A DNA stretch of 53,833 nucleotides from a virus (IMGVR_UViG_2740892427_000003), one strand, 5' to 3'; shown: positions 38,295 to 39,231, numbered from the stretch's first letter. A program made the numbers and translations. Notes: generated from the sequence alone by a model not told the origin.

Positions 38295-38416
38295 GTCTTT
38301 TTCCTTTTTCCGGTTAACGTGACACACCAATAACTCTTGTCAAAAAAGCCAGCAAGCTGAAAAGACCAGTATTCGCAACCACCAGCGCGTTTAACGCCCT
38401 GTGTCGTTTTTCGGGC

Positions 38417-38441
38417 ATAAAAAAACCCGCCAGTGGCGGGG
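38417..38441 (-). terminator. intrinsic terminator downstream of the MazF-fold gene
   Basis: Minus strand: stem cccgc/gcggg with 5-nt loop followed by U7. Confidence 0.5.
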
Positions 38442-38636
38442 ATCTTTTGATAAAAACGACAAAGGCACCATTAAGGTGCCTTTTACACAGGGGCAGCAGG
38501 CTTGTCATCACCTTATTGCTACTCCTGGCTTCCAGTTCGGAAGTCTCACAAGTCCCATCAGGGTACAGCGACAGTATCAGTCAACACACTATGTGTGTCA
38601 ATATAAATTCATATCGAATTCGATAATCGTTTTCGA

Positions 38637-39038
38637 TTATCGATACAGATAAGCCATCCCTATCCCGTGCAATACCGCCCGTTTAATATTCTCAAACTCA
38701 TCTTCCGCAATCATAGGAACAATATAATTTCGCCCCTCCCAGGTTCTAGTTTTTATGCGATCCAGTCGGCTCAATGAAACCGTCATCAACATGTCACATT
38801 TTACCCAACAAGTAATATGCTCATTACCAGGGATGGGGTTTTCTGATAACTCATGATGGCAATCTCTGCGAGGAATCGGTTCAGTAGTGCTTATTGGTAC
38901 CACTGTTACCAATTGATTGTTGTGTCTGTTTCTGGACACGACTACCACTGGCCTGACCTTGACTATTTCCGGAACAACCATTCCCCGAAAATCACACATT
39001 AAAACAGAACGAACAGACGGCTGATACTTTAACACCAT
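38637..39038 (-). CDS. MazF/PemK/Kid-fold protein (putative endoribonuclease toxin) with no adjacent antitoxin gene
   Basis: MVLKYQPSVRSVLMCDFRGMVVPEIVKVRPVVVVSRNRHNNQLVTVVPISTT and C-terminal SLSRLDR...EDEFENIKRAVLHGIG follow the MazF/PemK pattern; ATG 39036-39038. Confidence 0.5.
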   Translation of the reverse strand: MVLKYQPSVRSVLMCDFRGMVVPEIVKVRPVVVVSRNRHNNQLVTVVPISTTEPIPRRDCHHELSENPIPGNEHITCWVKCDMLMTVSLSRLDRIKTRTWEGRNYIVPMIAEDEFENIKRAVLHGIGMAYLYR

Positions 39039-39141
39039 AAATCTCTTTGCCTGATAATGACGACTTGTGAACTCCACTACAAACAAAATGATTCTGCTGA
39101 ACAGGCAGTTTCGCACTGTACATTATAACCTGTTAAGCCAA

Positions 39142-39166
39142 CAAAAAAACCCGCTCGGCGGCGGGG
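39142..39166 (-). terminator. intrinsic terminator between the 229-aa gene and the MazF-fold gene
   Basis: Minus strand: ccccgccgccgagcggg hairpin followed by U7. Confidence 0.5.
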
Positions 39167-39231
39167 TTTGCTTACTTTGCCATCGCGTACAAAATCGGCA
39201 AAATATCAGATTTACATGAAATATATGCTTT

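Follow-up and report, generated by a model that had tools for sequence, protein, structure and literature searches.

MazF-family endoribonucleases are textbook toxins neutralised by a protein, as in the type II toxin-antitoxin systems MazEF and PemIK (Kid-Kis). In the type III systems ToxIN, CptIN and TenpIN, an endoribonuclease, which in the case of ToxN has a fold resembling that of Kid/MazF, is paired with an RNA antitoxin of short tandem repeats that lies upstream of the toxin gene, with a terminator between the two, and is cut by the toxin. Small RNAs also accompany the enzyme-like toxins of the type I pairs RalR/RalA (rac prophage) and SymE/SymR, where the RNA is encoded antisense to, or overlapping, its target, and the complementarity of RalA to its toxin mRNA amounts to 16 nucleotides (nt). 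Here we describe a locus in the viral sequence IMGVR_UViG_2740892427_000003 (one strand of 53,833 nt, analysed whole and referred to below as the window), whose source is a lambdoid prophage of the Shiga-toxin-phage (Stx-phage) type from Escherichia coli. On its minus strand, a gene for a 133-amino-acid (aa) protein of the MazF/PemK fold is followed by a structured small RNA with a promoter of its own. We propose, with a confidence that stops a little short of even, that the two constitute a module in which a MazF-family endoribonuclease lacking a protein antitoxin is restrained by a dedicated RNA antidote of about 110 nt, in a manner resembling type III systems.

With MazEF and PemIK the locus shares the MazF fold, the Pfam family PF02452 and the catalytic Arg and Thr/Ser positions; unlike them, it has no gene for a MazE/PemI-type antitoxin, its protein belongs to a remote subfamily, and the partner is a structured RNA. 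Type III systems resemble it in joining an endoribonuclease toxin family to an RNA on phages and plasmids, but the present RNA is a single copy of about 82 nt plus terminator, folds into three hairpins, lies downstream of the gene under its own promoter and is free of repeats, and PemK_toxin is the only Pfam family that the protein matches at E≤0.1. RalR/RalA and SymE/SymR are likewise nuclease-type toxins borne by prophages together with a small RNA, and the 11-12 nt complementarity found in enteric cassettes (see below) is comparable to the short pairing of RalA; unlike RalA and SymR, the RNA described here lies downstream on the same strand, is highly structured and is conserved well beyond any complementarity, and the candidate toxin is a 133-aa MazF-fold protein, not the small hydrophobic peptide of type I systems. 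StxS and lambda 6S RNA, short transcripts running from the late promoter pR' to the terminator tR' (PMC7547250), occupy the same neighbourhood just past the antiterminator gene Q and are constitutive in lysogens, as we would predict for this RNA, and in one prophage that carries the RNA alone the motif sits within the pR' leader. Unlike those transcripts, it is driven by a promoter of its own, is also found beyond phages and is linked to a MazF-like gene. A toxin-antitoxin pair with an RNA antidote would be of a known kind, and a MazF-family toxin with such an RNA appears, as far as we found, to be undescribed: the literature covered, which was incomplete so that an earlier description is possible, yielded no account of this RNA, of a YifN module or of any MazF-family toxin with an RNA partner.

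A MazF-fold nuclease and the structured RNA behind it

An initial annotation, made from the sequence alone, had recognised the MazF/PemK pattern in the 133-aa protein, and this is borne out by profile search, by the predicted fold and by the catalytic residues. The open reading frame (ORF) matches PF02452 (PemK_toxin; E=6.1e-14, 52.6 bits) well above the curated cut-off of 23.1, and over its full length the phage family phrog_15698, of unknown function (E=1.3e-47); PF02452 is present in all 111 homologs. For an AlphaFold2 model computed with 78 homologs as input (predicted local distance difference test score, pLDDT, 95; predicted template-modelling score, pTM, 0.88), the top 50 Foldseek matches in the PDB were all MazF/MoxT/YdcE-type endoribonucleases at a probability of 1.00, with template-modelling scores of 0.56-0.73 when normalised to the query and 0.63-0.83 when normalised to the target. 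When aligned by hhalign to what we take to be the sequence of E. coli MazF and its catalytic residues R29 and T52, R29 of the protein pairs with R29 and S50 with T52, and both residues are invariant among the 78 homologs. An acidic C-terminal helix, considered as a built-in antitoxin, was ruled out, since its counterpart in the alignment is the regular C-terminal helix of MazF. Since all homologs begin with M-x-L-x-[FY]-Q-P, the 133-aa start is correct, and the 114-aa version in RefSeq, which starts at 38981, 19 codons later than the ATG at 39038, is not supported. The subfamily is remote from known MazFs (profile against PDB sequences, E~0.03; 13-19% identity to solved MazFs) and large, with about 1,300 clusters at 50% identity when the threshold is E≤0.001 and 807 at E≤1e-10; 501 stretches of species-representative genomes contain relatives. 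JGI labels its members "YifN (PemK superfamily)", and RefSeq labels the window gene a type II PemK/MazF toxin. The anti-phage defence profiles of PADLOC-DB 2.0 gave no match at E≤0.1 for the window protein and two distant homologs.

The second component lies directly beyond the stop codon. In the alignment of enteric downstream regions, a very conserved stretch of about 82 nt begins 6-7 nt past the -10 element of a promoter and comprises hairpin H1, a linker (G/A)CUUGUGAGACU, hairpin H2, a long hairpin H3 with the loop GAUGACAAG, and a closing GUG(A/U), which is GUGU in the window. The window RNA folds with -43.1 kcal/mol (z=-4.33). Across an alignment of 71 sequences, 97.3% of cells are paired, against 34-49% when the partners are slid, and 18 of the 23 base pairs show compensatory double changes; an independent analysis with MAFFT and RNAalifold returned the same three hairpins, 15 of 18 pairs being compensatory. 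Superimposed on this scaffold are single-stranded parts that are invariant or nearly so, namely the linker, AGCC, the H3 loop G(A/C)GAUGACAAGC and the 3' GUG(A/U). The many G-U pairs, together with the promoter and the terminator, settle the strand of the RNA. A pseudoknot between GCUUGU in the linker and ACAAGC in the loop was considered and is not supported, the linker variants GCCGGU and UCCUCC being uncompensated in the loop. Rfam 15 contains no family overlapping the RNA proper (window searched at E≤1); a sub-threshold isrK match covers the terminators only (38420-38479, 19.8 bits against a cut-off of 50, E=0.69), and neither six related loci at gathering thresholds nor seven distant loci at E≤0.1 gave any match.

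Transcription signals frame this RNA independently of the gene. The -35 (TTGAC) and -10 (TAATACT or GATACT) elements are conserved in the enteric alignment around a variable 17-nt spacer, and in 61 of 71 loci a promoter with at least 8 of 12 consensus matches precedes the first G of the RNA by a fixed distance, compared with 1.1% of random positions. At loci with only 3-10 nt between stop codon and RNA, the final codons of the nuclease gene contain this promoter. At the other end, terminator T1 is conserved among enteric relatives, with covariation in Atlantibacter, and a further terminator, T2, accompanies the RNA in RNA-only phages and in Atlantibacter; Stx phages without the cassette have it too. 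The initial annotation had described a dense palindrome cluster here and suggested a structured regulatory RNA. All four of its palindromes are present (plus strand, 38529-38543, 38584-38598, 38612-38625 and 38622-38641), and the density is far above chance, with 10 perfect hairpins (stem of at least 5, loop of at most 6) in 38530-38645 against 0.72 ± 0.95 in 500 dinucleotide shuffles; however, only cttcc-agttc-ggaag, which is hairpin H2, belongs to the conserved RNA. Of the remaining three, which the other cassettes of the enteric alignment do not conserve, acacac-tat-gtgtgt falls in the promoter spacer and the pair at the end of the gene makes up a stop-codon hairpin restricted to the E. coli lineage. 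The palindromic region is therefore in part an independently promoted, covarying small-RNA gene, and the suggested tie between structured RNA and toxin gene holds by virtue of this covariation, the separate promoter and the near-universal company that the RNA keeps with the MazF subfamily.

Co-occurrence across bacteria and the search for a protein partner

To follow the pair beyond the window, we trained a covariance model on 18 enteric sequences and no others, and applied it to the window and 84 loci gathered by protein similarity alone (85 sources). In 78 of the 85 an RNA match adjoins the gene, always on its strand, with E-values from 1e-20 to 3e-4, and where the gene is intact the RNA starts anywhere from a 21-nt overlap with the gene end to about 100 nt past the stop. 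The taxa include Pseudomonas, Caulobacteraceae, Neisseria, Pasteurellaceae, Oxalobacteraceae, Geobacteraceae and a metagenome-assembled genome of Anaerolineales, and the model additionally found matches on small plasmids and in a Vibrio element. The latter, Vibrio phage 10N.239.311.A09_PE001 (13.5 kb; L152, 2371-3632), has a relative at 38% identity directly after a split CI-type repressor (helix-turn-helix, HTH, plus S24 peptidase), that is, in an immunity region and not in a late operon, with the RNA motif about 130 nt downstream (E=6e-5). In four loci of the subclade for which the model gave no downstream RNA, short stretches upstream of the gene carry a GAUAACAAGC or GAAUACAAGC loop and H1/H2-like parts at non-significant scores (L077, 2877-2935, plus strand; L083, L086 and L090, around 2837, minus strand); in the last three, from Pseudomonas, they lie on the strand opposite to the gene, and all four may be diverged, rearranged copies of the RNA. 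The yifN pseudogene of E. coli K-12 MG1655 (L150, 2903-3461, minus strand) is a distant relative of the subfamily, and 57 nt past its end there is a non-significant likeness to H1, linker and H2 (6.2 bits, E=1.2).

The association is one-sided. Among 5,426 complete E. coli genomes the gene occurs in 24, all of which have the RNA (24/24), and 13 more have the RNA alone. Nine of these genomes (L099, NZ_CP075852.1) carry the same prophage with a clean deletion of about 0.5 kb that removed the 5' untranslated region (5'UTR), the gene and the -35 and left the RNA in place. Other RNA-only prophages have the motif inside the leader of a lambda-like pR' (L100, NZ_CP104500.1) or between a Panacea-domain gene and a ParDE pair (L101, NZ_CP028741.1). 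Both states occur among viral contigs, with the RNA lacking the gene in L117, L121, L122 and L142, and the RNA is kept beside the truncated nuclease genes of L027 and L045. Because in E. coli the toxin gene is never found without the RNA and the RNA is often found without the toxin gene, the pattern fits what an antidote predicts.

No protein antitoxin gene accompanies the nuclease gene, as the initial annotation had stated on the basis of the immediate surroundings. The cassette that the window shares with Enterobacter prophages at 73% identity begins only 23 nt ahead of the ATG, ends at the first terminator beyond the gene and contains no second conserved ORF. Called genes around the relatives in Enterobacter, Klebsiella, Xenorhabdus, Atlantibacter, Pseudomonas and Geobacter showed no small co-oriented partner, and neither the cassette nor its neighbours hold an adjacent, co-transcribed antitoxin gene of the type II kind. 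A crude six-frame ORF clustering over 89 loci, dominated by Pseudomonas synteny and uninformative in GC-rich genomes, gave no conserved small ORF. Tandem Repeats Finder detected no ToxI-like array, and 38300-39300 contains no direct-repeat family. Several candidates were set aside individually. The TrmB-like 65-aa winged-helix gene (38294-38097) is phage backbone, since Stx phages without the cassette share it. The 65-aa 'hypothetical protein' that RefSeq places at 38314-38511 (minus strand) spans the 3' part of the small RNA and both terminators, and its frame and length vary in the relatives (alignments by eye). A short ORF from an AUG in the H3 loop differs in length and frame in every lineage (alignments by eye); in many copies AUA, ACG, AUU or AAG stands in place of this AUG, and insertions in H2 vary in length.

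Antidote, substrate, antisense regulator or late gene

From these observations we infer the toxicity of the protein, its neutralisation by the RNA, the mechanism and the biological role, which would be as follows. The small RNA would be made from its own sigma-70 promoter directly downstream of the gene and on the same strand, and would act as the antidote of the nuclease. Most likely it would bind the nuclease directly through the two invariant single-stranded segments, the linker and the H3 loop; nearly invariant single-stranded segments on a covarying scaffold argue for recognition by a conserved protein, for which the nuclease is the obvious candidate. In enteric copies, the H3 loop may additionally base-pair with the toxin mRNA shortly before the ribosome-binding site, in the manner of type I systems. 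Within the prophage, the toxin gene would be transcribed mainly on Q read-through during lytic growth and the RNA constitutively, and candidate roles are abortive infection, addiction and late host shut-off. A broader claim, which we put forward tentatively and hold to be somewhat less likely than not, is that of a widespread toxin-antitoxin class on chromosomes, plasmids and phages in which a MazF endoribonuclease is restrained by a single-copy, independently transcribed three-hairpin RNA, and in which RNA-only phages could use the antidote against the toxin of a host or a rival prophage.

Several observations weigh against the antidote proposal. Seven of the 85 sources have no clear RNA match, and in the two of them that were looked at (L082 and L085) there was no protein partner. 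The 5.2-kb ColE1-type E. coli plasmid p5217 carries a relative of the gene at 41% identity (L151, 90-991), and its RNA motif lies just downstream on the opposite strand (921-991, E=5e-5), which is also a further argument for the RNA being an independent transcript; an 86-aa ORF stands 16 nt upstream of the gene, with only a faint HTH signal and no match to an antitoxin family, and given this plasmid some branches may still rely on a protein partner. The occurrence of the RNA alone in several prophages, including that in the pR' leader of L100, is also compatible with the RNA having a separate function. In many Pseudomonas the subfamily is a syntenic single-copy chromosomal gene, which could mean that it is not a classical toxin. 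Complementarity between RNA and mRNA is weak in the window and follows no consistent site over about 70 loci, and direct binding of RNA to protein is pure inference on our part.

A rival reading is that the protein is no growth toxin and instead specifically binds or processes the RNA, or has it as cofactor or guide, the two acting jointly, for instance in defence or RNA regulation, with no antidote role for the RNA. Strict co-occurrence and an independent RNA promoter are predicted by this account as well, invariant single-stranded segments suit recognition by a protein, and the stable single-copy gene in Pseudomonas stands in no obvious addiction context. We nevertheless consider it unlikely, as the catalytic Arg and Ser/Thr of toxic MazFs are invariant, the module resides on small plasmids and prophages, which are typical habitats of toxin-antitoxin systems, and loss of the gene with retention of the RNA is common while the reverse is unseen in E. 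coli, which an antidote predicts and an obligate complex does not. Antisense control as the main mechanism, at least in enteric cassettes, with the H3 loop pairing by the ribosome-binding site and blocking translation or triggering mRNA decay, draws on contiguous-pairing scans (RNAduplex was uninformative on long sequences). In eight Enterobacter/Klebsiella-type cassettes the H3 loop GGUGAUGACAA is a perfect 11-12 nt complement to mRNA positions -25 to -14, reached in 0-3 of 500 shuffles; a 9-bp site with two G-U pairs exists at the homologous position in the window beside an adjacent 10-bp site, and Neisseria has a 10-bp site at -21. The window sites are however individually non-significant (37 of 500 shuffles reach the better of the two), Xenorhabdus and Atlantibacter cassettes have no comparable site, and the loop is nearly invariant although the 5'UTRs are unrelated. 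Since complementarity is absent in most lineages, antisense control is not the general mechanism; it may operate in the enteric clade, and as the main explanation we regard it as quite unlikely.

The position of the gene suggests yet another account, in which there is no dedicated antidote: a late gene is silenced by tR' until Q acts, at which point the cell is doomed anyway, and the RNA is an unrelated, host-directed regulator of the StxS type that is linked to the gene by chance. In phages of three different Q families the gene does follow immediately on Q, pR' and tR', it has no conserved promoter, RNA-only prophages exist, and short pR' transcripts can be regulatory small RNAs (PMC7547250). 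The linkage persists, however, on the chromosomes of Pseudomonas, Caulobacteraceae, Neisseria and Geobacter and on small plasmids, where Q gating is absent, so we judge this account decidedly improbable. A conventional type II toxin, with a protein antitoxin encoded at another site or overlooked in gene calling, would agree with the RefSeq label and with the ORF preceding the p5217 relative, but it is very hard to reconcile with a cassette and neighbourhoods devoid of a conserved ORF in the genera examined, with a TrmB-like gene that belongs to the phage backbone, and with the missing antitoxin-family match of the p5217 ORF, and we give it scant credence. If the RNA is the antidote of the nuclease, the whole MazF subfamily (about 800 clusters at 50% identity, E≤1e-10), which databases call type II despite the missing partner, would shift to RNA-controlled systems. 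It would bring a structured RNA family that is new and whose protein or mRNA target can be tested, would account for 'solitary' MazF genes in genome annotations, and would place a toxin/antidote pair at the Q-controlled switch of Stx-related prophages, with possible effects on induction, superinfection or host shut-off. Even without an antidote role, the RNA is a well-supported family with no match in Rfam 15 and a clear genetic partner.

Prophage setting and neighbouring features

The 1.3 kb surrounding the MazF-like gene is 100% identical to several chromosomes of Shiga-toxin-producing E. coli. Along the minus strand, a DUF968 gene, RusA, Q, the pR'-like promoter and a terminator precede the gene (Table 1), and about 200 nt of non-coding DNA follow it, closed by two terminators. 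Beyond them are the TrmB-like 65-aa gene, a DNA methylase, three tRNA genes and a second methylase-like gene, and further along come copies of the small RNA STnc100, an esterase gene and the lysis genes.

Table 1. Positions of the features at and around the MazF-like gene in the window.
Feature	Coordinates	Strand	Evidence
Antiterminator Q gene, start of the late operon	39927-39232	-	PF06323 Phage_antiter_Q, E=6.3e-90; RefSeq 'bacteriophage antitermination protein Q'
pR'-like late promoter, TTGCAA-17-TATATT	39248-39220	-	Promoter scan, 9/12 matches; just past the Q stop codon
tR'-like intrinsic terminator	39165-39143 (stem 39165-39150)	-	Stem CCCGCCGCCGAGCGGG + T7
5'UTR stretch complementary to the small RNA	39071-39053	-	-33..-24 to linker GACUUGUGAG; -23..-15 to H3 loop GGUGAUGAC
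MazF/PemK-fold gene, 133 aa, ATG start, YifN-like subfamily	39038-38637	-	Pfam and PHROG matches
Perfect 10-bp hairpin over the stop codon (third and fourth palindromes)	38643-38620	-	Inverted repeat I14, 100% complementary
Small-RNA promoter (sigma-70), TTGACA-17-GATACT	38601-38573	-	10/12 matches
Structured small RNA, three hairpins, ~82 nt	38566-38485	-	R1 101.8 bits, E=2.9e-20; R2 81.4 bits
Terminator T1 of the small RNA	38483-38452	-	Nine-pair stem AAAGGCACC...GGTGCCTTT + U-rich tail
Terminator T2 ('downstream terminator' of the initial annotation)	38440-38419 (stem 38440-38426)	-	Stem CCCGCCACTGGCGGG + T7

The promoter behind Q would act as pR', judging by its likeness to the lambdoid architecture, in which pR' is constitutive and transcription halts at tR' until Q acts (PMC7547250). 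The terminator upstream of the MazF-like gene is, on this ground, most simply tR'. Both minus-strand terminators that had been proposed to flank the gene are real, each a stem with a T-run, but the upstream one is probably the phage late terminator behind Q and pR', and a third, T1 (38483-38461), had been overlooked. Its place in the late operon would thus be a further means of silencing the gene, and with no conserved promoter of its own, the cassette homology beginning only 23 nt before the ATG, the transcription of the gene probably depends mostly on Q read-through. Standing between Q/pR'/tR' and the lysis genes and bounded by its own signals, the cassette has the make-up of a late-operon accessory gene ('moron'), and Stx-type phages have the same flanks without it. 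Relatives in enteric prophages lie directly after Q proteins of three unrelated families (PF06323, PF03589 and PF06530) and before lysis genes; one enteric relative is in a Mu-like phage. The tR'-like terminator (39143-39165) and T2 (38419-38441) are direct repeats of 74% identity (family D1) that bracket the cassette, and tR' may be a recombination hotspot.

Two other small transcripts are predicted in this part of the prophage. One, of about 70 nt, would run from the pR'-like promoter to tR' (39213-39143, minus strand), in the position of the Hfq-binding StxS of Stx phages (PMC7547250), a likeness of position; it is a separate element upstream of the RNA described here. The other is the Rfam small RNA STnc100, with two strong copies and one weak copy (164.6, 134.9 and 28.5 bits) in 34778-35476 (minus strand), which occupy a gene-free stretch of about 1 kb between the methylase-like and esterase genes. 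This stretch is where, as we take it, the stx genes lie in Stx phages.

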